Made by a program: the position numbers and the translations under genes. Below the pieces are notes generated by a model. It had not been told where the DNA came from, made no database searches, and worked only from the letters and a program-made list of their open reading frames with translations. A DNA stretch of 64,000 nt from an uncultured Planctomycetia bacterium. GTDB taxonomy: Bacteria; Omnitrophota; Gorgyraeia; Pluralincolimonadales; Pluralincolimonadaceae. This document shows, piece after piece, positions 49,185 through 64,000 of the stretch; within the stretch, counting starts at the first letter, position 1, and each line of letters starts with the position of its first letter. The stretch is from positions 12,938-76,937 of the forward strand of contig CAZYUB010000010.1 in NCBI GenBank assembly GCA_964650515.1, given 5' to 3'.

Positions 49185-50012
49185 CTATTTCGGGCGGCGC
49201 GCGGCAAAAACCAGGAATACCGCGATCACGATAAGCCCTATTATGACTATCATGACCGACGAGAACGACAATGCCAGAGCCGGGGCGGGCCCCGCGAAGA
49301 CCGCTATGCCCCATTCGCTCGGGTCTGCATAAACATTCTTCGTCCCGTGCCAGGTGAACTGCAGCTCCCTCTTGTGCGTATCGCCGTCGTCCACCGAGAT
49401 GTCAAAATCTATCTTCCTTCCGGCCTCGGGCTTGAACCCGCCGAGGGCCTTGAAGGGTATCTTCGACTCGATTATGTAGCCCTTATCCCACCTGATCGAA
49501 GCGACCTCTATGCCGCCTTCGTAGTCGTCCCGTCGCCAGACCCACTCCCCCGCCTTTATATCCTTTTCATTTCCGGGGGTTATGCCTATCTGGTAATCCT
49601 GTTTCACGAAGAACATCCTCTTCGGGTCCGCGGTTTCGTCGAGTCCGAGCATTATCTCTAACGCGTCGCCGTCCCAGATGTCCGGGCCTTCCTTGCTGTT
49701 GTCGAAAGGCACGTCATCGGTCACCTTCGCCGCCACATACAGAGCGTCGTCATCCCATAACAGGTAGATGTCCGCGCTGAGGTCGTCCTTGCCCGACCAT
49801 ACGTTATACATTAGTATTTCGTAGGTTTGCTTGTCCATCCTTATGGCATAACCGGGATATTTGCTTAGGTCGCAATCGACTTTGACCGGTTTTGTTGCCT
49901 TATGGATGCGGACTTCGGGTTTCGGCACGGGCTTATCCTGCGCCTGGCACTGCTGGAGGGAAAAGAAAAACAGGAAAAGGGCTGCCGCCGTGAGCTTAAA
50001 TAGCTTTTTCAT
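49185..50012 (-). CDS. secreted CBM9-like (DOMON-type carbohydrate-binding) protein with C-terminal TM/basic anchor
   Basis: Signal peptide. Domain with LSADIYLLWDDDALYVAAKVTDD...IWDGDALEIMLGLDE, paralogous to the C-terminus of the GH26 protein. C-terminal TM plus RRPK tail. Confidence 0.5.
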   Translation of the reverse strand: MKKLFKLTAAALFLFFFSLQQCQAQDKPVPKPEVRIHKATKPVKVDCDLSKYPGYAIRMDKQTYEILMYNVWSGKDDLSADIYLLWDDDALYVAAKVTDDVPFDNSKEGPDIWDGDALEIMLGLDETADPKRMFFVKQDYQIGITPGNEKDIKAGEWVWRRDDYEGGIEVASIRWDKGYIIESKIPFKALGGFKPEAGRKIDFDISVDDGDTHKRELQFTWHGTKNVYADPSEWGIAVFAGPAPALALSFSSVMIVIIGLIVIAVFLVFAARRPK

Positions 50013-50030
50013 CTGGACCTCCAGGATTTC

Positions 50031-52373
50031 TTATATTCTATCAGAAATCCTGGGACGTGTCCAATGGGGACGTGTCACTTGGGGACAGGTCTTACCGTTA
50101 ATGAACACCTTCCCTTTCGTCACTTTGATATCATACTGCTTGCCACGGAAGGAGCGCTTCATCGTGAACCCGTCCCATGAGGAGGGAAGGCGCGGATCTA
50201 CCGTCAGCCCGTCGAGCGTAGCGCGCACGCCGAGTATCCAGTCGGTAAAGGCGCGGAACATCCACGCGGACGTCCCGGTAAGCCATGAATGGCTCCCGCG
50301 GCCGAATTGCGGGTGGTCGGGGCCGAAGAGGAACTGGCTGTAGACATACGGCTCGACCCTGTAGGTCTCCGCGCCGGCTTTCTTCGCGGCGACGGCCGGA
50401 AGCAGCTTGCGGTAATAGCCGAACGCCCTGTCCGCGCGGCCGAGCATCGCCTCGGCGATCACCGCCCAGGTATTCGCGTGGCAGAATATCGCGCCGTTCT
50501 CCTTTATGCCCGCCGGATAGTTGATCAGCGAGCCGATATCGTCCGGGCCGCTCGTATAGGAAGGCCAGCATATCCTGATGCCGAGGTCCGTATCGAGGTA
50601 TTTCCTGACGGCGTCCATGCATTTGATGCCGCGCGCGCGGCCAGCGACACCGCTCAATACCGCCCAGCTCTGCGTGTTTATATGTATCTTCCCCTCCTCG
50701 CATTCCTTCGAGCCGACGGGCCGCCCGTCGTCGGTAAAAGCCCGTATATACCATTCGCCGTCCCAGGCGGTATAGTTTATCCGCTGCTTCATTTCGTCGT
50801 ATATCTTCGTGAAGTTCTTCGCGTCCCTGGTCTTCTCCATCTTCGCAGCCAGTTCGGCCATCTGCCTCGCGGTATAGCAAAGGAACATCGCGACCCATAC
50901 CGATTCGCCCCTGCCTTTCCTGTCGATGTCGTTGAGGCAGTCGTTCCAGTCCGCGTAGAACATCCTCGGCAGGCCGTGCGGCCCGCAGTTCGCGAGCGTA
51001 TAATTTACCGCCCGGACCATATGCTCGTAGATCGTCCCGCAGGACCCCTCGATATACGGGGCCTTATCCTCAAGCACGGAGTAATCGCCTGTCTCGCAGA
51101 TATACGAGTATACGGCCGGGATCATCCAGAGGTGGTCATCGGAATATTTCTTCGGTTCGCCGGTGCCTACCGTCGGGTAGAAGAGGTGGTACGCGTGCCC
51201 GTCCTCGTACATGTTCTTCGCGAGCAGTTTTATCTTATCCTTCACCTGCGGCGCTATCGCGTGGACGACGCCGAGCGTGTCCTGGCTCGTGTCCCTGAAG
51301 CCGATGCCGCGGCCGGTGCCCGTGTTATACATTAGCGACGCGTAACGCGACCAGTCGAACGTAGTCCTCGACTGGTACTGGTTCCATATATTTATGTTCG
51401 CATTGACCGCGGGGTCCGGCGTCTCGATTATCAGCTTCGACGTATACTCCTCCCAGTATTTTTTGACGCGCTCGAGCTCATGAGCTACATGGCTTTCGTC
51501 CGAGTACTTCCGCAATATCCTGTCCGGTGTCAGCTTGTTCTCATACGCGTCGACGCCGAGGACGACCGTTACCTCCTTCCGCTCCCCGGGCTTGAGCTCG
51601 AGGCGCACCGAGAGCGCGCCTATCACGTTCCCGCCGATGACCTTTGAACATTTATGCCTGCCGGATTTCACCGCTTCCGGGTTTGTCTCGCTGCGGTACT
51701 TGCCGATGAAAGCTTCCCTCTCGCAATCGTAACCCCGGACTGCCCGGTTGGTGACGGCGAAGAACACCCTGGAAAAGTTACGCTTAAAATATCCCTTTTT
51801 CTTGTTGTAAAAAGAATAGTATATAGCCTTGTCGCGGCTGTCGTATTCGGCCATGGAGAAATAGTGGAGGTTCGGATGGAACATGAACTCCTCAGACGCG
51901 TCGAAGAGCGCGAACTCAACGTACGGCGTGGCCGTTATGGAGCGTTTCTCCTTTCCGGAATTCGTTATTACGGCGGACCACACTTCGATGTTGTCATCCA
52001 ACGGCACGAAATAAGTGACCTCGCTGGTTATTTTTTTGCTCTCGGAGGATATCTTCGTGTATCCGAGGCCGTGCCTGCACTCCCACGCGTCCGGCGCCTT
52101 GCAGACGGGCTGCCAGCCGGCGGACCAGTATTCCCCCGTCTCCGCGTCCCTGAGGTATACGTACCTGCCGGGCCTGTCGAGAGGCACGTTATTGTACCTG
52201 TACCTCGTTATGCGCTGGTACTTGGGGTCCTCAAAGAAACTGTAACCGCCCCCGGTCTGCGATATCAGCGCCGCGTACTTGCCGTTGCAGAGGTAATTTA
52301 TCCACGGCGTCGGCGTATCGAACCTGTTTATTATGAACTCCTTCCTGTCCCTCGAGAACCCGCCGTAATCCAT
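50031..52373 (-). CDS. GH94-family glycoside phosphorylase (cellobiose/cellodextrin phosphorylase-like)
   Basis: N-terminus (FDTPTPWINYLCNGKYAALISQTGGGYSFFEDPKYQRITRYRYNNVP) closely resembles cellobiose phosphorylase as I recall it. 780 aa. The C-terminal ~22 aa are encoded by the repeat element. Confidence 0.78.
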   Translation of the reverse strand: MDYGGFSRDRKEFIINRFDTPTPWINYLCNGKYAALISQTGGGYSFFEDPKYQRITRYRYNNVPLDRPGRYVYLRDAETGEYWSAGWQPVCKAPDAWECRHGLGYTKISSESKKITSEVTYFVPLDDNIEVWSAVITNSGKEKRSITATPYVEFALFDASEEFMFHPNLHYFSMAEYDSRDKAIYYSFYNKKKGYFKRNFSRVFFAVTNRAVRGYDCEREAFIGKYRSETNPEAVKSGRHKCSKVIGGNVIGALSVRLELKPGERKEVTVVLGVDAYENKLTPDRILRKYSDESHVAHELERVKKYWEEYTSKLIIETPDPAVNANINIWNQYQSRTTFDWSRYASLMYNTGTGRGIGFRDTSQDTLGVVHAIAPQVKDKIKLLAKNMYEDGHAYHLFYPTVGTGEPKKYSDDHLWMIPAVYSYICETGDYSVLEDKAPYIEGSCGTIYEHMVRAVNYTLANCGPHGLPRMFYADWNDCLNDIDRKGRGESVWVAMFLCYTARQMAELAAKMEKTRDAKNFTKIYDEMKQRINYTAWDGEWYIRAFTDDGRPVGSKECEEGKIHINTQSWAVLSGVAGRARGIKCMDAVRKYLDTDLGIRICWPSYTSGPDDIGSLINYPAGIKENGAIFCHANTWAVIAEAMLGRADRAFGYYRKLLPAVAAKKAGAETYRVEPYVYSQFLFGPDHPQFGRGSHSWLTGTSAWMFRAFTDWILGVRATLDGLTVDPRLPSSWDGFTMKRSFRGKQYDIKVTKGKVFINGKTCPQVTRPHWTRPRISDRI
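50052..50091 (-). repeat. triple tandem ~10-bp direct repeat (GACCTGTCCCC / GACACGTCCCC / GACACGTCCC; 15-bp period), copy B, inverted relative to copy A
   Basis: Read from sequence on the minus strand. It lies within the last ~20 codons of the GH94 ORF and is followed by an AGGATTTCT-N12-AGAAATCCT hairpin and the CBM9 gene RBS. Confidence 0.6.
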
Positions 52374-52385
52374 TTAGGTGCCTTT

Positions 52386-52412
52386 CATATATACTGGTTG
52401 TATACCATATTA
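52386..52412. promoter_or_regulatory. conserved motif copy S2 (TATATACTGGTTGTATACCATAT), 15-37 nt upstream of the GH94 start
   Basis: Shares TATAC(T/A)GG-N2-GTATACCA with the copies at 55954..55975 and 59646..59674. Candidate operator for the adjacent AraR-like regulator. Confidence 0.5.
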
Positions 52413-52429
52413 ATCAAAAAAAATAACCG

Positions 52430-53569
52430 TTATTTCGGCTTAGCGCTCGATTCCCTTACGACGAGATCGACAGGTATCACCTCTTTCGTCGCGATATTTA
52501 TGCGCCCTTCTATCCTGTCTATGAGCTTCTTAAGCGCTATCGAGCCCATCTCTTCCTTCGGCACGTTAACGGTGGTAAGCGGCGGTGTGGAGAGCGCGGC
52601 CCATTCTATGTTGTCGAAGCCGACGATCGATATGTCGCGCGGTATCGAAAGGCCGCTCTTGTCGCGTATTGCCTTCATCGCGCCCATCGCCGCCTCGTCG
52701 TTTATCGCGAAGACCGCGGTCGGAAGAGGGCTCTTCTTCAATATCTTCTCCATCGCCTTATACCCTTCCTCGACCATGTAGTAGGCCTCTATGACGAGGC
52801 CGTCGTCGTATTTGATACCGGCCTCTTGGAGGGCTTCTTTATAGCCCTCGAGCCTGCCTATCGACGCGGGCTGGTCCTGAAGCGGCGCGCGTATCATCGC
52901 TATGCGTTTGTGGCCGAGGTCCGTAAGGTGCTTCACGGCCAGGTATCCGCCGAGACGGTTGTCGGGTATGACAGAATCAATCGCGGGCTTCGAGATCTCG
53001 TTATCGACGAGGACGAGCGGGAACTTCTTGTCGTAGAGGCTCAGGACCGTCGTACGGTCGAGCCCCCCGATGACGATGATACCGTCGACGTTGTTCTCCA
53101 TCGCCCATCTCGCGATATCGCGCTCATCCTTTACCGATGTCACGAAATTGAACGAGAGCGTGCAGCCCATCCTCAGGGCTTCCTTCTGCATCGTCGAGAA
53201 TATGCCGACGTAGTAAGGGCTTAATATGGGCGATTGCGAGGTCGGGTTAAGGCGCCTCAGTATGCACGCGATGTTCTTGCGCCTCGACTGGCGCTTCATC
53301 GACGAAAAGGCATGGGCTTTCTGCAGCCCTTCCGCGTCCGAGACGAACGTCCCGGTGCCGGGTACGGAATACAGAAAGCCCTCCCTTATCAATTGCGCGA
53401 TGCCGCGCCTTAATGTGATGCGGTTGATCCCATGCTCCTTGCTCAGGATGCGTTCCGAAGGGATAGGTTCCCCGGGCTTGAACTGGCCGGCCTGGACCTG
53501 CTTGCGCAGTATATCGGCGAATTGCTGGTAGAAGAACTTTCCGCTCGACTTGTCCACCTTCGGGCTCAC
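52430..53569 (-). CDS. AraR-like transcriptional regulator (GntR-type wHTH plus LacI/PBP-like sugar-binding domain)
   Basis: N-terminal GntR HTH (PIPSERILSKEHGINRITLRRGIAQLIREGFL). C-terminal periplasmic-binding-protein fold typical of LacI/GalR effector domains. 379 aa. Confidence 0.7.
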   Translation of the reverse strand: MSPKVDKSSGKFFYQQFADILRKQVQAGQFKPGEPIPSERILSKEHGINRITLRRGIAQLIREGFLYSVPGTGTFVSDAEGLQKAHAFSSMKRQSRRKNIACILRRLNPTSQSPILSPYYVGIFSTMQKEALRMGCTLSFNFVTSVKDERDIARWAMENNVDGIIVIGGLDRTTVLSLYDKKFPLVLVDNEISKPAIDSVIPDNRLGGYLAVKHLTDLGHKRIAMIRAPLQDQPASIGRLEGYKEALQEAGIKYDDGLVIEAYYMVEEGYKAMEKILKKSPLPTAVFAINDEAAMGAMKAIRDKSGLSIPRDISIVGFDNIEWAALSTPPLTTVNVPKEEMGSIALKKLIDRIEGRINIATKEVIPVDLVVRESSAKPK

Positions 53570-53581
53570 GGGATCCTCCTG

Positions 53582-54205
53582 TTATTTGATATCGACGACC
53601 TTAAGCTCGTCGATGTGTATCGTGACGGATTTCTTGCCCTTGTTATATGCCGGGCCGACCGCGAACTTGATCTCTTTAAGCTCGGCCGGGTTGAAATCTA
53701 TGCCGGTAACCATCTTGCTGTTGTTCGCGTCCCAATACTGCCCCTTCTTGGGATAGGCGGTGAACGGTATGACCACCTTCTGCCACTCCTTGGTAGTCCT
53801 GACGAAGTTCGGGGTAGCCATTACGCCTATCTCCGTCTTGTTGCCGTCGCTGTCGTCCGCGTCTATGAGTATGACCTCGAAGTTCTCCCCGCCTTCCGCG
53901 CCTTTCACCCAGAACTCTATGCCGGGTTTCTTATACTGCGTAAGGTCCGCGAGCGGATAATGCCCCACCGCCGCGCCGGACCACTGCGTGCAGTCAAGCG
54001 TCGCCGTAAGGCAGGCGTCTCCCGACTTTGCGCCGGACTTGTTGATCTCGAACTCCGTGCCTCCTCCGTATACGTATTTATACTGGCCGTTCGATTCGTC
54101 TATCACGTCGATGTAATAATCTACCGTTTCGGCCTGCGCAAGCCTCGCTGCGCCTACAAGCGCCAAACCGCACAAGAACATTACCGCAAACACCCTCTTT
54201 CCCAT
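53582..54205 (-). CDS. secreted beta-sandwich protein, putative carbohydrate-binding module (paralog of 58964..59608 and 63723..64000)
   Basis: Signal peptide from the internal Met at 54205, which abuts the GH26 stop. ~180-aa domain ending ...KSVTIHIDELKVVDIK, matching the ends of the two paralogs. Confidence 0.45.
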   Translation of the reverse strand: MGKRVFAVMFLCGLALVGAARLAQAETVDYYIDVIDESNGQYKYVYGGGTEFEINKSGAKSGDACLTATLDCTQWSGAAVGHYPLADLTQYKKPGIEFWVKGAEGGENFEVILIDADDSDGNKTEIGVMATPNFVRTTKEWQKVVIPFTAYPKKGQYWDANNSKMVTGIDFNPAELKEIKFAVGPAYNKGKKSVTIHIDELKVVDIK

Positions 54206-54207
54206 CT

Positions 54208-55941
54208 TTACTGCCCCCTTTCTTTGAATACGACAAAGCCCCACTGGCAAGGTTCCTCATAAAATCTCTCGTCCCCCGAGAGGACCATCTGAGTGTGCCT
54301 GTCCTTTGTGTCCGAATCGTTCAATGCCACGTTGAAGCTGACCTTCATGCCGGGCGACGGTACAAAGTCCTGCGAGAACGACTTCCACGGCACCACCGCC
54401 TCGACAATATACCCGCCGGCTGCGCCCTGCGCACCCTCCGGCTTATATACCGCCGACTGCACTCCTTCGACCCTGTTCTTCAACTGCCATGACCATCTCT
54501 GCGGGATAACTTCCTTCCTGTTGCCGGTGCTGAAACCGATCTGGTAATCCGCCGCATCGAAAGCCATCCTGTCGGGGTCGGCTTCAGGGTCGAGGCTGAA
54601 CGCTATCTCGAAACTGTCGCCGTTCCATATCGCGTCGCCGCGCTTATCGTTGATGAAGGGCTTGTCGTCCTTTACCTTTGCCGCGACATAAAGGTTCGCC
54701 TCGTCCCACATCAGGTATACTTCCGCGCTTATATCGTCGGGGCCTTTCCAGATATCCTGGCCCATGATCACGTTCCTCTTGTCGCTTATCACGACCGGCA
54801 CAACATCCGCCCATTCGGAGAGGTCGCCGTCCGCCGTGACGGGTGCGGCTGCCTTCATAATCTCGATCACCGGCCTTGCGTATTCCGCCTGCGGGGCCGG
54901 CCTGAGTTCCGCCGTGACGCCTTCCGGAAGCTTGAACCCTTTCAGCAGTTTGGAAAAATACACGGGATCGCTCTTGAAATACGGGTCGGATACCGCTTCC
55001 GAGAACGCCTTGAGTATATCATTTTTCCCGTGAAGCCGCCAGTCGCATTCCTTCTTTATATTAAACCACACGATCGCTTTTACGCGCGGGAATTTTTGCC
55101 TGAGCGCAACAAAGGCGTCTTTTATCCATTGTATCTTGTCGCCGCCGGCGTCGCCCGAGGCGAATTCGCCTATCATTATCGGCTTACCTGGATATTTTTC
55201 CGTCAGTTGCTTATAACGTTTCGCGAATACCTTCTCGAACGGGTTCCAGCGGCTCCACTTCTCGGCCGTGCCCCAGTTATAACCGTCTATAGATACCCAG
55301 TCGACGTAGTTGTCTCCCGGGTAGTAATTGCTGTAGGTGTTCCACTGGGTCCACGGCACCTCGGTATCCATGACGCACCAGACCCATATCGCGTTATCGG
55401 CGCCGACCTCTTTAAAGAGGTCGTATACGTGGCGCCACGCCTTAATGTACTTCTTCGGGTCCTTATCGTTCTGGGCGCCGGACCACGGGTACCAGTTGCC
55501 GTCCATCTCGTGGCCCATACGAAGGAAATACGAGGTCCCGAGCCTCTTTCCGCGCTTCGCGAACGTCCTTATATATTCGTCATACTGCCCGTTGATTATG
55601 TTGTCGAGGTAGATTATGTCCTTGCCGTCCTTCTTTATCCAGGGCTCCCATGTTACGTGGGGTATGGCGCCGTAATCGACGATCGCCTGGCAGTCCTCCA
55701 GCGGGAAGATCTTCTGCCAATCGATGTAGAACATCACGGAGCCGGACTTCTTGTTTGCGGCGGCGTCGAAACGGTTTATCGGCGCGATGCGTATGGGGGT
55801 GTTCTCCATGAATATGCCCCACAGGCAGCCTTCGGGGATGTCCTGCGCCGCGGGGTCCGCTGCCGCGCAATCCGCCCTTCCGCAGGAGGCGAAAAGCGCG
55901 ATGGACAGGAATAACGGTATCATGGCCGGTATCAATCTCAT
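54208..55941 (-). CDS. GH26-family glycoside hydrolase (beta-mannanase-like) lipoprotein with C-terminal CBM9-like domain
   Basis: Lipobox LFASC. GH26 acid/base motif FLRMGHEMDGNWYPW and nucleophile region IMIGEFAS. C-terminal ~190 aa are homologous to the CBM9-like protein at 49185. Confidence 0.72.
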   Translation of the reverse strand: MRLIPAMIPLFLSIALFASCGRADCAAADPAAQDIPEGCLWGIFMENTPIRIAPINRFDAAANKKSGSVMFYIDWQKIFPLEDCQAIVDYGAIPHVTWEPWIKKDGKDIIYLDNIINGQYDEYIRTFAKRGKRLGTSYFLRMGHEMDGNWYPWSGAQNDKDPKKYIKAWRHVYDLFKEVGADNAIWVWCVMDTEVPWTQWNTYSNYYPGDNYVDWVSIDGYNWGTAEKWSRWNPFEKVFAKRYKQLTEKYPGKPIMIGEFASGDAGGDKIQWIKDAFVALRQKFPRVKAIVWFNIKKECDWRLHGKNDILKAFSEAVSDPYFKSDPVYFSKLLKGFKLPEGVTAELRPAPQAEYARPVIEIMKAAAPVTADGDLSEWADVVPVVISDKRNVIMGQDIWKGPDDISAEVYLMWDEANLYVAAKVKDDKPFINDKRGDAIWNGDSFEIAFSLDPEADPDRMAFDAADYQIGFSTGNRKEVIPQRWSWQLKNRVEGVQSAVYKPEGAQGAAGGYIVEAVVPWKSFSQDFVPSPGMKVSFNVALNDSDTKDRHTQMVLSGDERFYEEPCQWGFVVFKERGQ

Positions 55942-55953
55942 TGGTTTGCCTTT

Positions 55954-55975: not shown

Positions 55976-55996
55976 CATTCGTAAATTGCAAATATT

Positions 55997-56701
55997 TTAC
56001 ATCGCCCTGCCGGCGCGCAGGGAAGCGGTATATGCTCCGCATCTCTTATATCCGGCCCAGGCCTTGCCGCTTACCTTCGGGTCGGGGTCTATCTCCGAGA
56101 CGATAAGATAGCACATCATGGCCGCCTGCCCGTATTCCGCACGGTCGGGCCCGTCGCAGGCCTTCGAAAGGCCCTCGTAGTACTTCGCCGCCTCGAGATA
56201 ATTCCTTGATGCCTGTTTCTTCTCGTCGCCTGTCTTCGAACGCAGGCCCGCAATTATACCTTCCGCGCTGCCGCCCGGCTCGATGCCCGGCAGCCTCAGC
56301 TGGCCCGCCAGGCCGCCGTTGCACAGCGCAATGCCCTTTTCTGCCAGCGTCTCCATGCCTTCCGGAGGGCTGTATCCCTCCGCTTCCGCGCCTGCCCGCG
56401 CCCGGCAGGCGATGCCTTCACTGGCGCACCCTTTTACGACCTCAAAACATCCCCTTGCGAGGATGAAGTACCTGCTCTTCTTCAACGGTATATCATGCTC
56501 TTTCGCGCGCTTCATGAGCTTCTCCGCGAGGTCCAGGTATGCCCTGCAGCATGACTCGCGCTCCTGCCTGTCCTCGATGCGGCTTATCCTGCCTACCGCG
56601 ATCTTCACGTCGGAATCGCAGTTCGGCATGAATATGCCATCATCGGCCGCGCAGGCCCCGAAACTTAACATTGCCGCAAACGCTAATACGAGGCTCTTCA
56701 T
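55997..56701 (-). CDS. secreted cysteine-rich hypothetical protein
   Basis: Signal peptide (MKSLVLAFAAMLSFGACA) and 14 Cys in the mature part. Start at the internal Met at 56701 (GAGGAG RBS), directly after the GspK-like gene. Confidence 0.4.
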   Translation of the reverse strand: MKSLVLAFAAMLSFGACAADDGIFMPNCDSDVKIAVGRISRIEDRQERESCCRAYLDLAEKLMKRAKEHDIPLKKSRYFILARGCFEVVKGCASEGIACRARAGAEAEGYSPPEGMETLAEKGIALCNGGLAGQLRLPGIEPGGSAEGIIAGLRSKTGDEKKQASRNYLEAAKYYEGLSKACDGPDRAEYGQAAMMCYLIVSEIDPDPKVSGKAWAGYKRCGAYTASLRAGRAM

Positions 56702-56712
56702 CCGGCATCTCC

Positions 56713-58860
56713 TCATTGCCAGTAGACAATCTGCGCCCTTGGCATGAACGAGACGGTAACATCCTCAAGGACCGCGGTCTCGCTATACCAGGGTTTTGTC
56801 GCCGCCAGCGCGTTATCGTTGGAAACGAAATTCGCCCTGTACTGTATCGAGGACGCCGCTGGCGAGGTGATCCCGCCGCCGGCCCCCGGTGCCTGCCACG
56901 TATTGCCGCCGTCAACGCTTGTGAGCAAGTCAACCCTTTCCGAGGACGCATTTGCCGTGGACGGGACGGTTACGGTCCCCGCGATCGAACCCCAGGCCAC
57001 GACGGCGCCGGTGCCGTTCGGGGCCGACACATAATAGCCGTCCTGCGGTATTATCCTGACATTGTCGAAAGCCGGCAGGTGGTATTCCCCGTATAACCTC
57101 ACAAGCCCGGCCGCGTTCGTACCGCCCCCGTTGATATTCGAGAAAGTATAATTGCCTTCCTGTATCCTGCCCGAGGAAGCATTGTAATAAGCCCAATATA
57201 CCCTGTTCTGGCATACCACGCGCAGCGTCTTGCGCAGGACATAGGGTTCCGAATAATTGGCCCACGAAGGGCTCGCCCACATATGCAGCATCCCCGTATG
57301 GGGCAAAGGCCCCGGGTCCACGCCGTACGCGACGCCCTGCTGCATGTCCTCGATGTAATAGCTGGCGTCCCCGGCGCTCGTCCTCTTGAAGACGATCCTG
57401 CCCACGTCGTTCTGGAACCTGAAAGCGTACGATGCCGGGTTTGTTATGGGATACTCGTAGTCGATCGGCTCCATAGCGTCCCACCAAAACCTCATGCGCA
57501 TGTCATAGGTCCTTATCTTGTCGTCTATGTATACCTGCGCGCTATGGTTAGCCCACATCCATCTCGGGGAGGCCTCAAGGCCGAGGTCGCAGGTCGGCCA
57601 TAATTTCGTATTATCGGAGGTTTCCGTGTCGTACTGCCCGATGACCGTCGTGTTCCATATCCCGTCCCTCGGGTTCCATTCGTTATTCGTCCAGTCGGTC
57701 TGCTGTCCGACATTGCCGTCTATATTCTCGGTGAAATTGTCCCAGAACCCCGCCTTTATCGAGTTCTTTATTACGTCGTAATCCGCGGCGGCGGCCCCGT
57801 TCCAGTCCTGGTCGGACCTTACCGGGCAGCTGTCCATGAAATTCACCCGGACCATCTCCCCGTTCGACATATCCCCTTCCCCCGCTCCGGAGGCCCAGTT
57901 GTCATTGCGCCATACCAGGGCGAACTGGCCCTTTGTCGTCTCGTTCCATATATCGAAAATTTTTATTACCGCATGGGCCTGCCTTGACGCAACGGCGATC
58001 CCCGCGATATTTCTCACGGTCCCCGACGACGTCATTTCATAATAACCGCCGGAATTGAAGCAGAACTCCGTCGAATAGGCCGCCGGCTTCGTCCTGTTCG
58101 GGTTCGCGCCGTCCTTTACTTCCCTGCTCTCCGCAGGGTTCAGCCCGATATAATTGTCAATGAACGCGTCGAACTGCTGCCAGCCGGTGAACGGCCGCGC
58201 GGCGATGATCGCCTGCGCAAGGCCCTGCGACTTCGCGTCGCTGTTTACGAGGCTGCGGAGCACCGCCCGCAGGACGGGTTCCGAAGCCGTGTTGATATTG
58301 ACCGGCGCCCTTTCCTCCGTCGTGGTATCGTCAGGCAGGAAAGTATTCCGGTCCTTATAACCGTATAATGTGACATATTCCTTTATCGAGTCGTATTTGG
58401 CGGCGCTTATGCCCGCCCTGATCTTTATCTCTTCCTTTGTGGTGTACGGGGCGTTATCCGCGACAGCCTGGCACTCTATGGAAGTCAGCGGGTTGCCCAG
58501 GGCCGTGTTAAGGTTTTGCATCATCTGGCCGATCCTGCTGTTTTCGGTATTGTTCACGTTTATCTGCCTCGCGCAATCTATCACCGTGACCGTATAGCCG
58601 CCTTCAGAATAACCGGAATACCATGCCTCCGAAGACGTATCGAAAGCGGTATTCGCGGCCCCCTCCGGGCCGTTTTTGAGCTCGGCTATGGCCCTGGCGA
58701 TCCCGGCTTCCGCGAGGTATCTCGCCTTTAAGCCCCTTGAGTAGCTCACGGCCTCCTTGCCGGCCAAAAGCATGTTCACGGCAAAGGTCGTGCCTATGAG
58801 CGCCATCAGCGATAACACGCCCACCACGAGTATCAGAGCCACGCCTTTTTTTCCGCGCAT
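56713..58860 (-). CDS. giant GspK-like (type II secretion minor pseudopilin K family) protein
   Basis: N-terminus (RGKKGVALILVVGVLSLMALIGTTFAVNMLLAGKEAVSYSRGLKARYLAEAGIARAIAEL) and a PVNINTASEPVLRAV helix-hairpin element typical of GspK, followed by a ~500-aa extra domain. Start at the internal Met at 58860. Confidence 0.55.
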   Translation of the reverse strand: MRGKKGVALILVVGVLSLMALIGTTFAVNMLLAGKEAVSYSRGLKARYLAEAGIARAIAELKNGPEGAANTAFDTSSEAWYSGYSEGGYTVTVIDCARQINVNNTENSRIGQMMQNLNTALGNPLTSIECQAVADNAPYTTKEEIKIRAGISAAKYDSIKEYVTLYGYKDRNTFLPDDTTTEERAPVNINTASEPVLRAVLRSLVNSDAKSQGLAQAIIAARPFTGWQQFDAFIDNYIGLNPAESREVKDGANPNRTKPAAYSTEFCFNSGGYYEMTSSGTVRNIAGIAVASRQAHAVIKIFDIWNETTKGQFALVWRNDNWASGAGEGDMSNGEMVRVNFMDSCPVRSDQDWNGAAAADYDVIKNSIKAGFWDNFTENIDGNVGQQTDWTNNEWNPRDGIWNTTVIGQYDTETSDNTKLWPTCDLGLEASPRWMWANHSAQVYIDDKIRTYDMRMRFWWDAMEPIDYEYPITNPASYAFRFQNDVGRIVFKRTSAGDASYYIEDMQQGVAYGVDPGPLPHTGMLHMWASPSWANYSEPYVLRKTLRVVCQNRVYWAYYNASSGRIQEGNYTFSNINGGGTNAAGLVRLYGEYHLPAFDNVRIIPQDGYYVSAPNGTGAVVAWGSIAGTVTVPSTANASSERVDLLTSVDGGNTWQAPGAGGGITSPAASSIQYRANFVSNDNALAATKPWYSETAVLEDVTVSFMPRAQIVYWQ

Positions 58861-58963
58861 CTTATCCCCGCCTGTAAATAGTTTAGGGAGGCCTGAGAGT
58901 TGGGGGACTGCATTACTATCAGGCCTCCCCAAACGAACTGGGTTGTCTATACTTAGAAGCGGA

Positions 58964-59608
58964 TCACTTCTTCCTTCTGGAGGCCGCTAACATCCCGACC
59001 AAACCCGAGCCGAGAAGCAGCAAGCTTGCCGGTTCCGGTACCGCCTGGATGTCATCGACGCCGAAGTCTACGCTGCCTCCGGGTGCGGTGCCGCCGCATG
59101 CCACGACCAGGTTGATCTGCTTTAGGTCGCCGGTCCATACGTCATCGCCGGTCCCCGCGTTCTGGTCGACAAAGTTCGCGAAAGGCAGCGATATCGTCTT
59201 CCAGCCCGTCCAATCGATGGGCGTGTAGGTCGGAGAGCCGTAATAGCCGCCCGCGAATACATCGCCGTCGTTCTCGTACAGCTCATACTTGATCGTGCCG
59301 TAGCTGCCGTCTCCCTTCACGCTGACGACCAGGTCTGACAGGCCCGACCAGTTCTGCGGTTTGTAATTTCCCCATCCGCCCAAATACCAGTTGCCGTTCA
59401 CATCGGTGCCGTTAAGCCTGAGGTAATTACCGCTGGGCCCTCCCGCAACCGTGGCCTCCGAAAGCTCTCCCGTATCCTGGAATCCGTAAGAACCGGAAGG
59501 CAGGGCCGGAGGAGTCGAGGTCTCAAAATCCTCCCAGGTTGCAGCCGAAACGCCTGATGCGAACAGGAGGGACACAGCCAAAACAACTAAAATAGAGAAT
59601 CTCTTCAT
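58964..59608 (-). CDS. PEP-CTERM sorting-domain protein with CBM-like beta-sandwich domain
   Basis: Signal peptide. C-terminal VPEPASLLLLGSGLVGMLAASRRKK (PEP motif, TM, basic tail) is the exosortase recognition tail. Confidence 0.7.
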   Translation of the reverse strand: MKRFSILVVLAVSLLFASGVSAATWEDFETSTPPALPSGSYGFQDTGELSEATVAGGPSGNYLRLNGTDVNGNWYLGGWGNYKPQNWSGLSDLVVSVKGDGSYGTIKYELYENDGDVFAGGYYGSPTYTPIDWTGWKTISLPFANFVDQNAGTGDDVWTGDLKQINLVVACGGTAPGGSVDFGVDDIQAVPEPASLLLLGSGLVGMLAASRRKK

Positions 59609-59645
59609 TATTCTTTTTCACCCCCTTCCCGTCACCATCTCCCCA

Positions 59646-59674
59646 TATATATACTGGACGTATACCAGTATATT
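59646..59674. promoter_or_regulatory. conserved motif copy S1 (TATATATACTGGACGTATACCAGTATAT) upstream of the PEP-CTERM/GspK-like operon
   Basis: Same core as S2 and S3. Lies in the 130-bp gap between the PEP-CTERM gene start and the M48 gene stop. Confidence 0.5.
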
Positions 59675-59738
59675 ATATATCGGGCATAAGTCAAGGGTAA
59701 ATATTTGTTAATTTTGGGTGCGTATTACGGCGGGTACT

Positions 59739-60521
59739 TTACCACTTGTTATCGAGAGGCTTGTTGATCCACTCCCTGAAGGTCTTCCTCCCCTCGATCG
59801 CGCTTTCTATCTTGCCCATCCTCTCGCCTACGTAAGGGTGGGTTTTGAAGTAGGAATACGGCCTTATGTCGTTCTTCTTCTCCCTCTTCATCGTCTCCAT
59901 GAAGGTCAGCACCCCGTGCGGGTCATACCCCGCTTCCCTCGTATAGAGGACGGCGCGCTTGTCCGCCTCGAACTCGTCCTCGCGGGAATACGACGCCATA
60001 AGGGAGGTTATCGCGAGGTCGGTAGCCCTAGCGGCGTTGCCCCCCTGCGTCGCCGCGACAAGTATCATCGCTATGCTGGCCACTGAGCTCTGCTGGAGCT
60101 TCTTCATATGGTGCCGCGCGGCTATGTGCCCGATCTCATGCGCCAGTACGCCGGCGAGCTCGTCGTCGTTCTTGCAGACATCGATGAGGCCCGAGAATAC
60201 ATAGACCCATCCGCCCGGCAGCGATACGGCGTTGATATCGTCGACCGCGAGCACTTTGAAATGGTATATTAGCTCCTTGCGGTCGCAGTACTTCACGAGC
60301 CTTTGGCCTATCAGCTCCACCCTCTCCTGGGCGTGTTTGTCGGGATCGAGCTTATATACGGCCTCGACCTTCTTTGCGATCGAATCGCCCATCTCCATCT
60401 CCTTTTCAGGGGAGACGATGATGTTCTCGTCCTTCCCGGTAACCATGTTATATTCTGCCGGGCAGTCCGCCGCAACGGATAAGAAGCATATTATCGCCGC
60501 AAAACACGCTATCTTCGCCAT
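59739..60521 (-). CDS. M48-family zinc metallopeptidase (BepA/YcaL-like), secreted
   Basis: Signal peptide. HEIGHIAARH (HExxH) with a downstream Glu ligand region (EDEFEADKRAV). 260 aa. Confidence 0.75.
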   Translation of the reverse strand: MAKIACFAAIICFLSVAADCPAEYNMVTGKDENIIVSPEKEMEMGDSIAKKVEAVYKLDPDKHAQERVELIGQRLVKYCDRKELIYHFKVLAVDDINAVSLPGGWVYVFSGLIDVCKNDDELAGVLAHEIGHIAARHHMKKLQQSSVASIAMILVAATQGGNAARATDLAITSLMASYSREDEFEADKRAVLYTREAGYDPHGVLTFMETMKREKKNDIRPYSYFKTHPYVGERMGKIESAIEGRKTFREWINKPLDNKW

Positions 60522-60538
60522 GCGGATAAATTATCATA

Positions 60539-60567
60539 TTGAAAAATGGAAGTAAAGCACTTATAAT
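60539..60567 (+). promoter_or_regulatory. sigma70-like promoter TTGAAA-17-TATAAT, 6 nt upstream of the ATG at 60574 (near-leaderless)
   Basis: TTGAAA at 60539-60544 and TATAAT at 60562-60567. No SD between the -10 element and the start codon. Confidence 0.55.
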
Positions 60568-60573
60568 AGCCCT

Positions 60574-61050
60574 ATGAATAAGACGATCTGCCTCGCGCTC
60601 GCTGTGGCCTCGCTAGCCTGCTGCCTCCATGGCTGTTCGCAACAGCAACATAAGAAGGAAGCCATAGCGACGATCGGCAGCTACTCCCTATACAGGGACG
60701 ATTTCATGTCCGAGCTTGCGTTATACCCTCCGGAATACCTCCAAAAGGTCACAAAAGAACAGATCCTCGACGGGATAATACAGAAGAAGGTGCTGCTTCT
60801 GGAGGCCCAGCGCCGCGGGCTCGACAGGGACCCCCAGTTCATGAAGATGGTCGAACGCTTCTGGGAACAGAGCCTGCTGCGTTCGCTGCTGGATACAAGG
60901 TCCGAAGAGATACTCTCTGAGATACCGGAAACGGACAAGGACCGGAACATAAAGGCCGGCGAAGCGCTGAGGTCGTGGATAGAGGAGCTCGAGAAGAAGA
61001 CCCCCGTTGAGATCAACGCCGATGCCCTGGAGAAGATAACCATAAAATGA
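60574..61050 (+). CDS. lipoprotein with SurA-N-like chaperone domain
   Basis: Lipobox LACCLHGCS. ~130-aa helical domain (KKVLLLEAQRRGLDRDPQFMKMVERFWEQSLL). Confidence 0.45.
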   Translation: MNKTICLALAVASLACCLHGCSQQQHKKEAIATIGSYSLYRDDFMSELALYPPEYLQKVTKEQILDGIIQKKVLLLEAQRRGLDRDPQFMKMVERFWEQSLLRSLLDTRSEEILSEIPETDKDRNIKAGEALRSWIEELEKKTPVEINADALEKITIK

Positions 61051-62222
61051 AGACGACCGGCAGCCAGAACCGCAGACGCAACTACTTCATTAAAAAAGGT
61101 TTCCAGGCAAGCTTCATCGTGAAATTCTGCCTTCTGCTCATACTGGCATGCCTCATAATGTCGTTCGTATCCTACCTTTTCATGGGAAATACGTCCACGG
61201 CGAGCTTCGAGAACCTCCGCTTTACCGTCAAGAGTACATCCGATTTCATGATGCCGATACTTATATCCAGCGGAATAACGGCCGTGGTCCTCGTCAGCAT
61301 AGCCACGATAGTCATAGTCCTCTTCATATCCCACAGGATAGCGGGGCCGCTCTTCCGTCTCGAGAAATCACTGGAAGAGCTGGGAGAGGGCGACCTGACC
61401 GTGGATGTCCACCTGAGGCAGGCGGACGAGATCAAGGCGCTCGCCGACACCCTAAACAAGACGATGAAGAACCTGAAGGAGCCGATAGCGGCGTCTAAAG
61501 CGAAGGCGGAAGAGCTCGAGGCCGAGGTCGCCTCCCTGAGGGAGATGCTCAGGAAAAAGGGCCTTTCCGACAACGATATAGAAAAGGCCGTCGGGCCGGC
61601 GGAAAACAAGGTCCGGCAGATAAAGCGCGGCCTCTCTTTCTTTAAGATATGCTCGATATTGGCGTTCGCCGTTATGTTGGCATGCGCTTCGGTCAGCGCC
61701 GCGCATGCGAGCATCACTGCCGAAGGGACATTCACGGACGGCAGCGACTGGACGGCGATCGACAGTATCTTTTGCACGATCTTTTTCAAGCATGACGTGG
61801 ACATCAGGAAGGTCAACAACAGGATCGACACATATAAGATAGATTTCGGCCTTACCGAAAAACCCTCCCGCGCCTCGAATGATACCGAAGGGGAGATCGC
61901 CTATAAGTTCGACCTTATATTCTTCAAGGTCCAGGAGATCCTCGACATGAGGCCAAAGGGCCTGCACCTGAACGTCCGGATATATAAGGGGCAGGATGAC
62001 CTCGACAGGATATATATGGAGATCTTCGACCAGAATAATAATTTTATCGCATATTACATCTTCAAGCTTAATTCGCTCTTCATGAGCGAGGAGAAGATAT
62101 CGGCCAACGTGATGGCCCACGAGATAGCCCACTGCATCGTCGACCATTATTTCTCGGTGATCCCTCCCACAAAGGTCGCCGAAATGATCGCGCAATACGC
62201 CGACGCACATCTAAGAGAATAA
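61047..62222 (+). CDS. membrane protein: two TMs, HAMP domain, coiled coil, third TM, and a C-terminal domain with HExxH motif
   Basis: HAMP (RIAGPLFRLEKSLEELGEGDLTVDV...), an internal hydrophobic segment (ICSILAFAVMLACASVSAAHA), and a C-terminal AHEIAHCIVDH. 4-nt overlap with the upstream lipoprotein gene. Confidence 0.5.
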   Translation: MKTTGSQNRRRNYFIKKGFQASFIVKFCLLLILACLIMSFVSYLFMGNTSTASFENLRFTVKSTSDFMMPILISSGITAVVLVSIATIVIVLFISHRIAGPLFRLEKSLEELGEGDLTVDVHLRQADEIKALADTLNKTMKNLKEPIAASKAKAEELEAEVASLREMLRKKGLSDNDIEKAVGPAENKVRQIKRGLSFFKICSILAFAVMLACASVSAAHASITAEGTFTDGSDWTAIDSIFCTIFFKHDVDIRKVNNRIDTYKIDFGLTEKPSRASNDTEGEIAYKFDLIFFKVQEILDMRPKGLHLNVRIYKGQDDLDRIYMEIFDQNNNFIAYYIFKLNSLFMSEEKISANVMAHEIAHCIVDHYFSVIPPTKVAEMIAQYADAHLRE

Positions 62223-62245
62223 GGATTGACGGAGCCATGCACAAA

Positions 62246-62282
62246 GGGGACACCCTGCTTTATGCAGGATGTCCCCTTTTTT
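62246..62282 (+). terminator. rho-independent terminator (GGGGACACCCTGC-TTTA-GCAGGATGTCCCC plus T6)
   Basis: 13-bp stem with one mismatch, 4-nt loop, and a T-run at 62277-62282, 24 nt after the stop of the 61047..62222 gene. Confidence 0.6.
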
Positions 62283-62323
62283 ATCATCTTCGAGGGTGTC
62301 CCCCCGGAGGATGGCTCCAGTTA

Positions 62324-63712
62324 CTAGTTGGGTTTCTTGCCTACCCTCGGAGGCTCTACTACATCGCAGCCCTTCGCCCATAATTCCTTGAGGGCGTAGT
62401 ATGCCTTCTTCGGGATCCTCTTATTGACACCGTTCTCCTTCTCGAGGCTCATGCCGACTATGCCGTACCACTCCTCGTTCATGTTCATGTGGCCTTCGAC
62501 CTCGATGTCGAAATAGTAGGCGCCGTTAGTCCAGCCGGCTGTCTCATCCTGGACATACCAGCTCGCGGGGTTCGCGGCATCATGCTTCCACCACTCGTCG
62601 TTCCATTCGAATATGCACCCGCCGAGCACTGTGCCCTTGCCGGTCTTGCCGCAGGTGTTCCTGAGAATCTCCTTCCACTGCGATATAAGGAACTTAACCT
62701 GTATATCCTCATCCTCTTTTTTGGTCAGCGCGTTATACCTGTCGCAGCCGAACTCAGTAAGGACTATCGGCTTGCCGAACCTCTTGTTCGCCTGCTCCCA
62801 TGTGTTGCCGAAGCTCATGCCCCTGTAGGATATGAGCCCGAGTATGTCTATATCGGGAGTCACCGTGCTGGCAACATCGAGGAAAAAGACCTCGCCGTTG
62901 CCCATCGCAACCGGATGGTTCGGGTCAATCTTCTTGATCTCCTTCGCAATGTCGTTAACGAAGCTGTAATACAGTTTCGCTTTCGCGTTCGCCCTCTCCT
63001 TCGGGTCTTCTATGCTGTCGAGCTCGTCGGAACCCCACGGGGCGATCTGGTCGTCGAAACTGTAATTATTCTCGTTGCCGAGAAGCCAGAAGAGTATCCC
63101 GGGCTCGTCCTTGTAGGCCTTAACGATACTGAGGACCTCGTCCTTCACCTGCTGCCTGTAGCCCTCATCGGCGTAGTTAGGCGGCGGTATGTCATAGATG
63201 CCGAGGTTATGGCCCATTATAGTGCGGATGCCGAACTTGCTGTAGAGGTCGGAAAGGACCTGTTTCGTCTCCTGTTGGCTCTCTCCCGGCTGGTAGAAAC
63301 GCACCGTATTTATCGAGGCGTCCTTCATCAGCTGCCCGTCCACAAGCCACGGCTTGGTCGGGTCGCCCCACCAGTTATAGGTATAATCCTGCCCCGGAGG
63401 GACCGGCTGGTAGCAGACGCCCATTACCACATAGGTCTCGCCGTTTACGACAAGACGGAAATGGCCGTTGGGCATCTTCTCGACGAACGTCTTCTTGCCC
63501 TTTGCCGTGGGTTTTGAGGACATCTTGCTGAAGAGGAAACATCCGCCTATCATGAATGACATCAACAACGCCAGCAACAATAACAGGTAAAACCCTTTCT
63601 TGCCATCCTTGCGCTTGTGGTGATGCGCATGCGCGGTGTGGTGGCCATGGTGATGCGCCCCCTGCCCCGCGTGGTGCTCGTGATGCTCGTAGCGTAAGTT
63701 ATGTTGATCCAT
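62324..63712 (-). CDS. clan GH-A TIM-barrel glycoside hydrolase with N-terminal His-rich cytoplasmic tail and signal-anchor
   Basis: N-terminus HEHHAGQGAHHHGHHTAHAHHH, then one TM. Catalytic-like motifs LLGNENNY (acid/base NE) and VLTEFGCD (nucleophile TE). Family not assignable by eye. Confidence 0.6.
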   Translation of the reverse strand: MDQHNLRYEHHEHHAGQGAHHHGHHTAHAHHHKRKDGKKGFYLLLLLALLMSFMIGGCFLFSKMSSKPTAKGKKTFVEKMPNGHFRLVVNGETYVVMGVCYQPVPPGQDYTYNWWGDPTKPWLVDGQLMKDASINTVRFYQPGESQQETKQVLSDLYSKFGIRTIMGHNLGIYDIPPPNYADEGYRQQVKDEVLSIVKAYKDEPGILFWLLGNENNYSFDDQIAPWGSDELDSIEDPKERANAKAKLYYSFVNDIAKEIKKIDPNHPVAMGNGEVFFLDVASTVTPDIDILGLISYRGMSFGNTWEQANKRFGKPIVLTEFGCDRYNALTKKEDEDIQVKFLISQWKEILRNTCGKTGKGTVLGGCIFEWNDEWWKHDAANPASWYVQDETAGWTNGAYYFDIEVEGHMNMNEEWYGIVGMSLEKENGVNKRIPKKAYYALKELWAKGCDVVEPPRVGKKPN

Positions 63713-63722
63713 TTTTTATTCT

Positions 63723-64000
63723 TTACTCGTAATAGATATCGTCAAAATAAATCGTGAAACCGTCCGGGTTATCCGCAGCGCTCGCTGCCCAACAGAACCC
63801 GCCCGAAATATAGGTCAGGTCTTTGCCCGTAAGGTCGATGACATATTCCTTCCACTCCGGCGTGAGCGTCAGCGGCCCGATAGAAGCAGTATCGGTATCC
63901 GCGTACTCCCCGGTAATGCCTCCTGTCTTTACCTCGGCAAGTACTTCGCCGCCCTTGCCGCCCCTGGCCCAGAAGACCAGTTTCTTGGCACCTGTCAGGT
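63723..64000 (-). CDS. C-terminal part of a protein carrying the same CBM-like beta-sandwich domain, 5' partial at window edge
   Basis: ...GKDLTYISGGFCWAASAADNPDGFTIYFDDIYYE* aligns with the C-termini of 53582..54205 and 58964..59608. Its stop is 10 nt upstream of the His-rich GH start. Confidence 0.4.
   Translation of the reverse strand, partial: LTGAKKLVFWARGGKGGEVLAEVKTGGITGEYADTDTASIGPLTLTPEWKEYVIDLTGKDLTYISGGFCWAASAADNPDGFTIYFDDIYYE

Follow-up and report, generated by a model that had tools for sequence, protein, structure and literature searches.

Orphan GspK-like pseudopilins paired with PEP-CTERM-anchored binding proteins in a probable beta-glucan locus and in other glycan loci of Omnitrophota

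The DNA considered here is a 64,000-nucleotide stretch of contig CAZYUB010000010.1 (positions 12,938 to 76,937), referred to below as the window, from a bacterium of the phylum Omnitrophota; every relative of the GspK-like protein discussed below likewise comes from Candidatus Omnitrophota metagenome-assembled genomes (MAGs). These bacteria are widespread and almost entirely uncultivated, and their means of acquiring carbon have so far been hard to read. From position 49185 to the end of the window, gene calling scored by codon usage, together with a listing of open reading frames (ORFs), gives 13 genes, whose identities were taken from Pfam, NCBIfam and PDB comparisons (Table 1). Among them are glycoside hydrolases (GHs), a phosphorylase, proteins with carbohydrate-binding modules (CBMs), one of which bears a PEP-CTERM sorting signal, a sugar-sensing regulator and an orphan relative of the minor pseudopilin GspK. 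Every gene listed in the first-pass annotation of this DNA was found again at its place, and the reading of the cluster as a glycan-utilisation locus is supported. Two genes had been missed in that annotation, namely those for the regulator and for the small SurA_N-like lipoprotein. The remainder of the window consists of housekeeping genes.

Table 1. Genes and other features from position 49185 to the end of the window (coordinates of the window; minus strand unless noted)
Feature	Position	Strand	Evidence or remark
Secreted CBM9 protein, C-terminal transmembrane segment and RRPK tail	49185-50012	-	Pfam CBM9_1 2.4e-26; last gene of cluster
GH94 phosphorylase, cytoplasmic (predicted)	50031-52373	-	Pfam 2.6e-140 and 5.4e-79
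Regulator, GntR-type winged helix-turn-helix (HTH) and LacI/PBP-type sugar-binding domain	52430-53569	-	Pfam GntR 1.5e-13, Peripla_BP_3 8.6e-40
Secreted CBM30/CBM11-like protein, 222 aa	53582-54205	-	Pfam CBM30 1.5e-11, CBM_11 4.1e-7
Putative lipoprotein, GH26 (aa 48-318) and C-terminal CBM9	54208-55941	-	Pfam GH26 2.8e-11 (partial), CBM9 2.9e-20
Cys-rich putative lipoprotein, 239 aa, '+1' partner	55997-56716	-	Follows GspK-like gene
Orphan GspK-like minor pseudopilin, 715 aa	56713-58860	-	Pfam T2SSK 34.5 bits (cutoff 24.2)
Secreted CBM11-like beta-sandwich protein with PEP-CTERM, first operon gene	58964-59608	-	Pfam CBM_11 5.9e-9; PEP-CTERM 29.9 bits
Candidate promoter and overlapping palindrome	59652-59694	-	Palindrome 59652-59670
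M48 peptidase	59739-60521	-	Pfam 9e-32
Small SurA_N-like lipoprotein	60574-61050	+	Weak Pfam SurA_N_3 match
HAMP membrane protein, C-terminal domain with HEIAH (HExxH)	61047-62222	+	Pfam HAMP 1.9e-9
His-rich clan GH-A enzyme, 462 aa, N-terminal transmembrane anchor	62324-63712	-	Distantly GH158-like
Secreted CBM-like protein, C-terminal fragment, cut by window edge	63729-64000	-	Translation; full protein roughly 200 aa

The grouping of these genes is not accidental: the cluster is colinear in relatives at 81-97% identity (loci L001 and L012-L016), and a core is kept at 35-37% identity in L002-L004 and L006. This core comprises the PEP-CTERM-CBM11 protein, the GspK-like protein, a small protein, the GntR/LacI regulator, a CBM30 protein, the GH26-CBM9 protein and another CBM30 protein; in the distant relatives its flanks are unrelated, and GH94, M48 and HAMP genes are lacking. 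The gene set co-occurs in related MAGs, and the first-pass claim that the PEP-CTERM CBM protein and the GspK-like pseudopilin belong to the locus is supported by the synteny of the pair in distant relatives and by its recurrence in other glycan loci (see below). In the 97%-identical locus L012, on JBAZJG010000006.1 of the sister MAG JBAZJG01, the cluster reaches further than the window does. Four CBM-like paralogs stand in tandem there, and the cluster also includes a 663-aa enzyme, its second of clan GH-A, and one more CBM9 fragment. The ORF at the edge of the window corresponds to the final paralog of this tandem and is identical to the C-terminus of L012:4527-5138. Some large GspK-like paralogs (such as that of L011) do occur outside the context of carbohydrate-active enzymes, as would be expected if the GspK-like gene and its partner were a selfish or drifting duplicate that has settled among sugar genes and shares no function with its neighbors. 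We regard this as very improbable, given that the order of the core persists at 35% identity between otherwise different flanks, that the GspK-like gene and the gene after it are translationally coupled, and that the same cassette is found in at least six types of locus with matching binding modules.

The start codon of the GspK-like gene was set by comparison with the orthologs P0001 and P0003. Its product begins with MRGKKG/VALILVVGVLSLMALIGTTFAV (KKG/VALILVVG, the slash marking the end of the leader), i.e. with a short basic leader ending in glycine and followed by a hydrophobic alpha1 helix that lacks Glu5, as in GspK, and the leader glycine is nearly invariant in alignment A2. In the AlphaFold2 (AF2) model residues 1-315 have predicted local distance difference test (pLDDT) values above 90 and match P. 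aeruginosa XcpX (9a1f_T; E 8e-10, template-modelling score 0.67) and 6utu_C (1.8e-7) in Foldseek searches; as modelled, this region is a GspK fold, namely a pilin fold with an alpha-helical insertion domain. It is followed by a lineage-specific middle region (about 320-600) and by a conserved C-terminal beta-sandwich (about 600-715), which the same AF2 model covers with a pLDDT of about 88. An exhaustive search with residues 320-715 against 1.8 billion representatives returned 93 relatives, nearly all of them GspK-like proteins of 650-1000 aa, and about a dozen share the middle region. More generally, the large GspK proteins of Omnitrophota have the N-domain, a few motifs and the C-terminal beta-sandwich in common and vary in the middle, where several paralogs carry a LamG-type jelly roll (PF13385) recognised by Pfam. 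A LamG identity was also considered for the middle domain of the window type and was rejected, as hhalign against the LamG-type paralogs gave no relation beyond the last strand.

The gene that follows, here termed '+1', overlaps the stop of the GspK-like gene with its start by 4 bp. Its product has no Pfam or NCBIfam match, and jackhmmer ties it to the gene after GspK-like genes in L002, L017, L036, L038, L042 and L044. A single family for all '+1' proteins was rejected: the jackhmmer links are partly due to a short common N-terminal mini-domain that is also found in a DUF481 protein, and the '+1' proteins form two families with at most this mini-domain in common. The mini-domain, a beta unit of ~40 aa (e.g. 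TVTLNNGRSLEGEILEE...), is common to the '+1' proteins of L009, L057, L002 and L038 and to the DUF481 outer-membrane protein L002:17423-18409.

The GspK-like gene is an orphan, with no prepilin-motif gene in the window, unlike the operons of L005, L007 and L057, which have H/I/J genes directly upstream of K. Such canonical operons in relatives encode GspE/PilB-like ATPases, GspF, G, H, I and J, a large K of 673-1000 aa with a large extra head, PilM-like and PilO/Amuc_1100-like proteins, and a secretin. In L005 (2121-6678) a true PilT/PilU ATPase (442 bits against a cutoff of 319) lies between two GspE/PilB-like ATPases with MshE-type c-di-GMP-binding N-domains, and the secretin of L007 is MshL-like; an Amuc_1100-family protein is also present. 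When the large GspK-like genes of the 65 loci examined are sorted by context, 18 are canonical, with prepilin-motif genes upstream, one has both features, 25 are orphans flanked by PEP-CTERM genes, and 31 have neither, the last class resting on a crude test and including several second or third copies in canonical operons or genes at contig ends. Two or three giant GspK-like genes (about 960-1040 aa) stand in succession in the canonical operons of L021, L030, L039, L046 and L057, and every one of them has one or two '+1'-family genes behind it, which indicates that the K/+1 pair duplicates as a unit.

The GspK fold, and the presence in relatives of canonical operons with GspE/F/G/H/I/J and a secretin, could also be explained by the main rival reading, a cargo-specific secretion adaptor, in which the GspK-like protein would form the tip of a periplasmic type II secretion system (T2SS) pseudopilus and, through its variable domain, pick the exoproteins of its locus (the GH26-CBM9 and CBM proteins) and push them through the secretin. 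What each glycan locus contributes would in that case be a secretion specificity factor and not a tip that binds glycan. In favor of such an adaptor, several secreted proteins are encoded in every locus with an orphan GspK-like gene, and the middle domain has no detectable lectin or CBM similarity. We nevertheless consider it possible but unlikely: the canonical K already has a large extra head, at least one canonical operon includes a PilT retraction ATPase, which is more typical of a surface pilus, the LamG-type jelly roll of several paralogs is a fold common in sugar binding, and PEP-CTERM proteins and lipoproteins have sorting routes of their own.

The first gene of the operon encodes a CBM11-like protein (36.7 bits on CBM_11, above the gathering threshold), which ends in the PEP-CTERM sorting signal VPEPASLLLLGSGLVGMLAASRRKK; this tail exceeds the curated cutoffs of both PF07589 (29.9 vs 20.7) and TIGR02595 (25.7 vs 16). 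The first-pass annotation had proposed that this protein, a secreted protein and the one at the window edge are homologous small beta-sandwich proteins, and profile-profile comparison confirms it, with hhalign probabilities of 93-98% and E values from 3e-7 to 4e-15. The secreted 222-aa protein is itself above the gathering threshold, with 45 bits on CBM30 and 30.7 bits on CBM_11 (cutoff 27), and is related to its PEP-CTERM paralog with 98% probability, while the edge-type paralogs are linked to CBM11/CBM30 by hhalign only (edge fragment against the CBM30-like family, 97% probability). In L001-L004 and L012-L016 an ortholog of the PEP-CTERM-CBM protein is encoded immediately upstream of the GspK-like gene. 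Across the 65 loci, all 28 of the 28 distinct PEP-CTERM tails (VPEPAS..LGSGL..) that pass a strict tail filter lie no more than two genes from an orphan GspK-like gene, although the loci are partly orthologous and the adjacency counts are not independent events; a looser pattern gave false positives, e.g. a GH130. At the other end of the cluster the CBM9 protein terminates in GPAPALALSFSSVMIVIIGLIVIAVFLVFAARRPK, a transmembrane segment and basic tail without a PEP motif. This ending is kept in L012 and L013; it may simply anchor the protein by its tail, or it may be a sorting signal of a kind not yet recognised.

The cassette formed by an orphan GspK-like gene, the gene for a '+1' secreted protein and, usually, a PEP-CTERM gene is found in no fewer than six kinds of glycan locus, in most cases together with a LacI-type regulator. 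These are the GH26/GH94 loci (the window and L012); GH113/GH130/GH2 loci with Mann_GBD-PEP-CTERM partners (L009, L035); a GH94 locus with a CBM11/30-PEP-CTERM partner and a GntR/LacI regulator (L028); a GH116 locus with Mann_GBD partners and an ABC importer (L010); a locus for a F5/8C-six-hairpin GH with LacI (L044); and GH2 loci (L017, L020). Five of the six kinds have a PEP-CTERM partner, the GH2 loci being without a confirmed one. The anchored partner has an identified binding module in the first four kinds, and there the module tracks the enzymes, with CBM11/30 accompanying GH26/GH94 and Mann_GBD accompanying GH113/GH130 and occurring in the GH116 locus; in the PEP-CTERM partner of L044 no binding domain is recognisable. 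Three cassette loci and one canonical operon (L012, L028, L035 and L057) occur in the sister MAG alone. A literature search found no relevant description of Omnitrophota with pseudopilins, PEP-CTERM proteins or exosortases, and no paper on PEP-CTERM/GspK-like cassettes. The new element appears to be a tip subunit that is paralogous from locus to locus and paired with a PEP-CTERM binding protein.

As to the substrate, the first-pass annotation had taken the GH26 and GH94 enzymes for a system that degrades beta-mannan or glucomannan. GH26 is best known for its mannanases, Pfam gives only the family, and some sources label distant homologs of the 462-aa GH as 'endo-1,4-beta-mannosidase'. In PDB comparisons, the best match of the GH26 domain is the corresponding module of Clostridium thermocellum endoglucanase H (CtLic26A, 2bv9), a lichenase, with E 2.9e-52 and 181 bits, against 1e-4 to 1e-8 and 24-35 bits for GH26 mannanases (about 1e-4) and the xylanase AlXyn26A. 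Alignment to 2bv9 shows both catalytic glutamates to be kept, as HE(M/A)(D/N)G at Glu109 and (G/A)EFAS at Glu222, and the CBM9 of the same protein matches that of Xyn10A (1i82, E 2.4e-7). By these similarities the enzyme is of the lichenase type, closer to the characterised beta-1,3-1,4-glucanase than to mannanases or xylanases. Endoglucanase H of C. thermocellum also bears the founding CBM11. Mannoside phosphorylases belong to GH130 (Pfam PF04041 description), and the sister MAG has a dedicated mannan locus (L035) with two GH113 enzymes, a GH130, Mann_GBD proteins including Mann_GBD-PEP-CTERM proteins, an ABC importer, LacI and GH2. Because the GH26 is of the lichenase type, the GH94 matches glucoside and chitobiose enzymes, and a separate mannan locus exists in the sister genome, the mannan reading is unsupported, and we would give it hardly any credence. 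The most likely substrate is a beta-glucan, either mixed-linkage or beta-1,3/1,4 glucan, and the case illustrates that a GH26 domain alone does not mean a mannanase, a tempting mis-annotation that is corrected here.

The GH94 phosphorylase is closest to the cellobiose phosphorylases (CBPs), matching CtCBP over its full length with E 3e-182, and its PDB matches are restricted to beta-glucoside and chitobiose phosphorylases and a beta-1,2-glucan synthase. The catalytic aspartate is kept, with ADWND aligned to W488-N489-D490 of CuCBP. The CBP-type +1 site is absent: serine stands in place of CuCBP E649 and alanine in place of N667, and the catalytic loop is ~15 residues shorter, all of which is kept in orthologs. 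In CBPs this loop folds over the pocket (PMC5667895), and the E649C substitution in CuCBP leads to acceptance of anomerically substituted glucosides as acceptors (PMC7896129). On account of the two substitutions, the shortened loop and the E649C precedent, the GH94 of the window is predicted to have an opened +1/+2 acceptor site. Such a site would suit lichenase products such as cellobiosyl-beta-1,3-glucose, and the enzyme, judged from these three positions, is probably not a strict cellobiose phosphorylase. The lineage has two GH94 paralog groups (50031-52373 of the window and L028:15367-17724), both short-looped, with Ser/Ala in one and Asp/Pro in the other at CuCBP E649/N667, which suggests two non-cellobiose specificities.

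A second hydrolase that may act on the same polymer is the 462-aa clan GH-A enzyme. Its family profile matches GH158, a family of endo-beta-1,3-glucanases, best in the PDB (9oro, 1.9e-11; 6pal, 6e-8), ahead of GH2 (2e-5), the GH158 match covering short stretches of ~70-80 residues, and the NE and E motifs are invariant in the family alignment (A4). The family is very large, with 1967 matches at E<=1e-5, and is without a curated family entry; the named members are mostly from Omnitrophota, many at ~50% identity. The His-rich N-terminus is confined to the lineage of the window.

The eight minus-strand genes from 59608 to 49185, with gaps of 2-56 bp within the operon, are probably a single transcription unit. 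Upstream of the PEP-CTERM gene lies a -35/-10 pair (TTGACT and the TATACT/TATAAT region, 16 nt apart), and a perfect palindrome, TACTGG-N7-CCAGTA, overlaps the -10 region. The palindrome occurs once in the window and is found exactly, at the same spot, in five relatives, from loci L001 and L012-L016, and is a candidate operator for the regulator of the locus. In the distant loci L002 and L006, tandem CCAGTA/CCAGAA half-sites stand in place of the palindrome. The regulator, with its GntR-type HTH and LacI-type domain, is part of the core in the distant loci L002-L006 and is also present in L028.

These observations suggest how the locus might work, and we hold at about even confidence that it is a beta-glucan locus whose orphan GspK paralog supplies a locus-specific filament tip that works together with an anchored CBM protein. 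The promoter and conserved palindrome would place the eight-gene operon under its internal GntR-HTH/LacI-type sugar sensor. Outside the cell the PEP-CTERM-anchored CBM11-like protein, the free CBM11/30-like proteins and the CBM9 modules would hold the polysaccharide, while the GH26-CBM9 lipoprotein, perhaps with the GH158-like membrane enzyme, would cut the glucan; inside the cell the GH94 with its opened acceptor site would phosphorolyse the products. On induction the GspK paralog is envisaged to take or join the tip of a filament built by a single canonical T2SS/type-IV-pilus-like machinery encoded elsewhere, and its variable middle domain may act as a substrate-specific head that cooperates with the anchored CBM protein in glycan capture. 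The identities of the domains, the orphan status of the GspK-like gene, the conserved synteny and the reappearance of the cassette in loci that serve other sugars are observed, as is the GspK fold; that the protein enters a filament tip, that its head binds glycan and that the palindrome mediates regulation are proposals built on sequence and context, as are the exact substrates. Going further, it is conceivable, as a tentative proposal, that one type-IV-filament machine, retractile in at least some lineages, is fitted with interchangeable tips from the glycan loci, each locus being induced by a sugar sensor of its own and adding a small partner lipoprotein and a matching PEP-CTERM binder, and fishes polymer to the surface enzymes. 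On this proposal the PEP-CTERM tails might even be processed jointly with the pseudopilins, with no classical exosortase involved, and the pair of PEP-CTERM and GspK-like genes would serve as a marker of polysaccharide utilisation loci (PULs) for this phylum, as SusC/D does for Bacteroidota.

Several results weigh against the preferred reading of a locus-specific filament tip. The first-pass designation of the GspK-like protein as a pseudopilin stands with respect to its fold, its Pfam T2SSK match and its membership in the locus, but not with respect to operon context, and the score on the NCBIfam T2SS_GspK equivalog (46 bits) is far below the cutoff of 130. No secretion system, pilin or prepilin-motif gene, GspG/H/I/J, prepilin peptidase or exosortase is found among the genes of the 64-kb window, and an exosortase (EpsH/Xrt) was seen neither there nor in the fetched loci of relatives. 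The middle region of the GspK-like protein (~320-600) has pLDDT values below 50 in two AF2 runs (full length with 37 sequences, and the C-terminal 386 aa with 26 sequences) and resembles no structure or profile significantly, a Foldseek search with the second model finding nothing below E 0.02, so that glycan binding by this region is unsupported. The partial orthology of the 65 loci has been noted above, and the specificity of the GH94 was judged from three positions only. A promoter and terminator scan of the window was not above chance, with 14 found against 10.1 expected from shuffled sequence, and the only promoter site used here is the one backed by cross-genome conservation. Finally, the locus contains no transporter gene, unlike the mannan loci.

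The lack of an importer bears on a further explanation. Omnitrophota are regarded as nanobacteria that depend on a host or prey on other cells, and the tip, the lectin-like PEP-CTERM proteins and the hydrolases could make up a module for attachment to a host or prey, by which the surface glycans of another cell are bound and breached and no free polysaccharide is harvested. A preprint places T2SS and type IV pilus genes and glycoside hydrolases beside giant genes in Omnitrophota and reads them as serving cell-wall attack (10.64898/2026.06.07.730766). The LacI-type sugar-sensing regulator and the cytoplasmic phosphorylase instead point to catabolism of imported oligosaccharides, sister loci carry solute-binding proteins and ABC importers, ROK kinase and GH130, and lichenase- and CBM11-type modules are typical of the use of plant or algal beta-glucans; attachment as the function of the locus accordingly seems to us quite unlikely.

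If the preferred reading of a beta-glucan locus with its own filament tip is correct, the tip subunits of type IV filaments would have acquired a catabolic, substrate-switchable role, and PEP-CTERM sorting would be tied to filament machinery. A recognisable cassette of this kind, with its orphan GspK-like gene, partner lipoprotein and PEP-CTERM binding protein beside a LacI-type regulator, would allow the polysaccharide loci of Omnitrophota to be found in metagenomes and sorted by substrate.

The remaining genes of the region are more loosely associated with the locus. The M48 gene is kept in L001 and L012-L016 and absent in L002-L006, and the HAMP/HExxH and SurA_N-like genes are kept in close relatives only; all three are probably peripheral. 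In the HAMP protein a coiled coil is followed by a second hydrophobic segment and then by a ~170-aa domain with the HEIAH motif, which matches no Pfam family, and the protein could be a membrane-tethered metalloprotease-like sensor. Downstream of the CBM9 gene lie housekeeping genes, with thyX followed by genes for an extracytoplasmic function (ECF) sigma factor and a zf-HC2 anti-sigma factor (47280-48384, minus strand). Further away, at 12363-16348 on the minus strand, three consecutive genes encode a ClpC-like AAA+ protein (808 aa), a McsB-like ATP:guanido phosphotransferase (353 aa) and a UVR-domain McsA-like protein (161 aa), which gives this Omnitrophota genome an arginine-kinase/ClpC quality-control module in the style of Firmicutes. 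No Pfam family is matched by the 597-aa ORF that separates clpC from the Mla transporter genes (10551-12344, minus strand), and the only Rfam matches in the whole window are two tRNAs outside the locus.

Compared with known systems, the GspK-like protein resembles GspK/XcpX, which forms the tip of the T2SS complex GspK-I-J, in its hydrophobic alpha1 helix, which follows glycine and lacks Glu5, and in the alpha-domain insertion with the T2SSK motif within the N-terminal 315 aa. It differs in being twice as long, with ~400 extra residues that form the variable middle and the conserved C-terminal beta-sandwich, in scoring below the NCBIfam cutoff, and in being encoded away from gspG-J, inside a glycan locus and in a genome with several such paralogs. 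Pilus-assisted glycan binding has a precedent, since type IV pili are implicated in adhesion to cellulose in Ruminococcus albus and Caldicellulosiruptor. PilC and PilB of Streptococcus sanguinis are modular minor type IV pilins that likewise combine a pilin moiety with a grafted lectin or adhesin module, a lectin in PilC, and are proposed to form a tip complex that binds glycans (PMC9934059, PMC8179133), and the PilC structure (7oa7) is among the weak Foldseek fold matches. The S. sanguinis pilins serve host adhesion, and in this Gram-positive bacterium their genes belong to the pilus operon, whereas here a GspK-type subunit has been duplicated into catabolic loci under sugar regulators, and its glycan binding is a prediction.

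The PEP-CTERM tails have the VPEP motif, hydrophobic helix and Arg/Lys cluster of PEP-CTERM/exosortase sorting signals and pass the Pfam and TIGRFAM cutoffs, but every tail in the 65 loci adjoins a GspK-like paralog, and no exosortase was seen in the sequences examined. With respect to the enzymes, C. thermocellum CelH (Lic26A-Cel5E-CBM11) similarly brings a lichenase-type GH26 and CBM11-type modules into one system; in the window the modules are distributed over several polypeptides, CBM9 is the module joined to the GH26, and dockerins and a cellulosome are absent. The GH94 shares full-length similarity, domain order and the catalytic aspartate with the cellobiose phosphorylases of C. thermocellum, Cellvibrio gilvus and Cellulomonas uda, and differs from them in the Ser/Ala substitutions and the shorter catalytic loop.

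The statement at first pass that the locus differs from both Sus-type PULs and cellulosomes holds: SusC and SusD are absent, as are dockerins, and neither a TonB-dependent receptor nor a SusD-family protein was found in the window or related loci, in agreement with the reported absence of the Sus-type architecture in Omnitrophota (10.64898/2026.06.07.730766). The general plan is nonetheless that of the PULs of Bacteroidota, with one locus per glycan, a regulator, surface binders, endo-enzymes and catabolic enzymes, and a recurrent marker pair. In Omnitrophota the markers are instead the PEP-CTERM-anchored CBM protein and the GspK-like protein, and import, in those sister loci that encode it, is by ABC systems.

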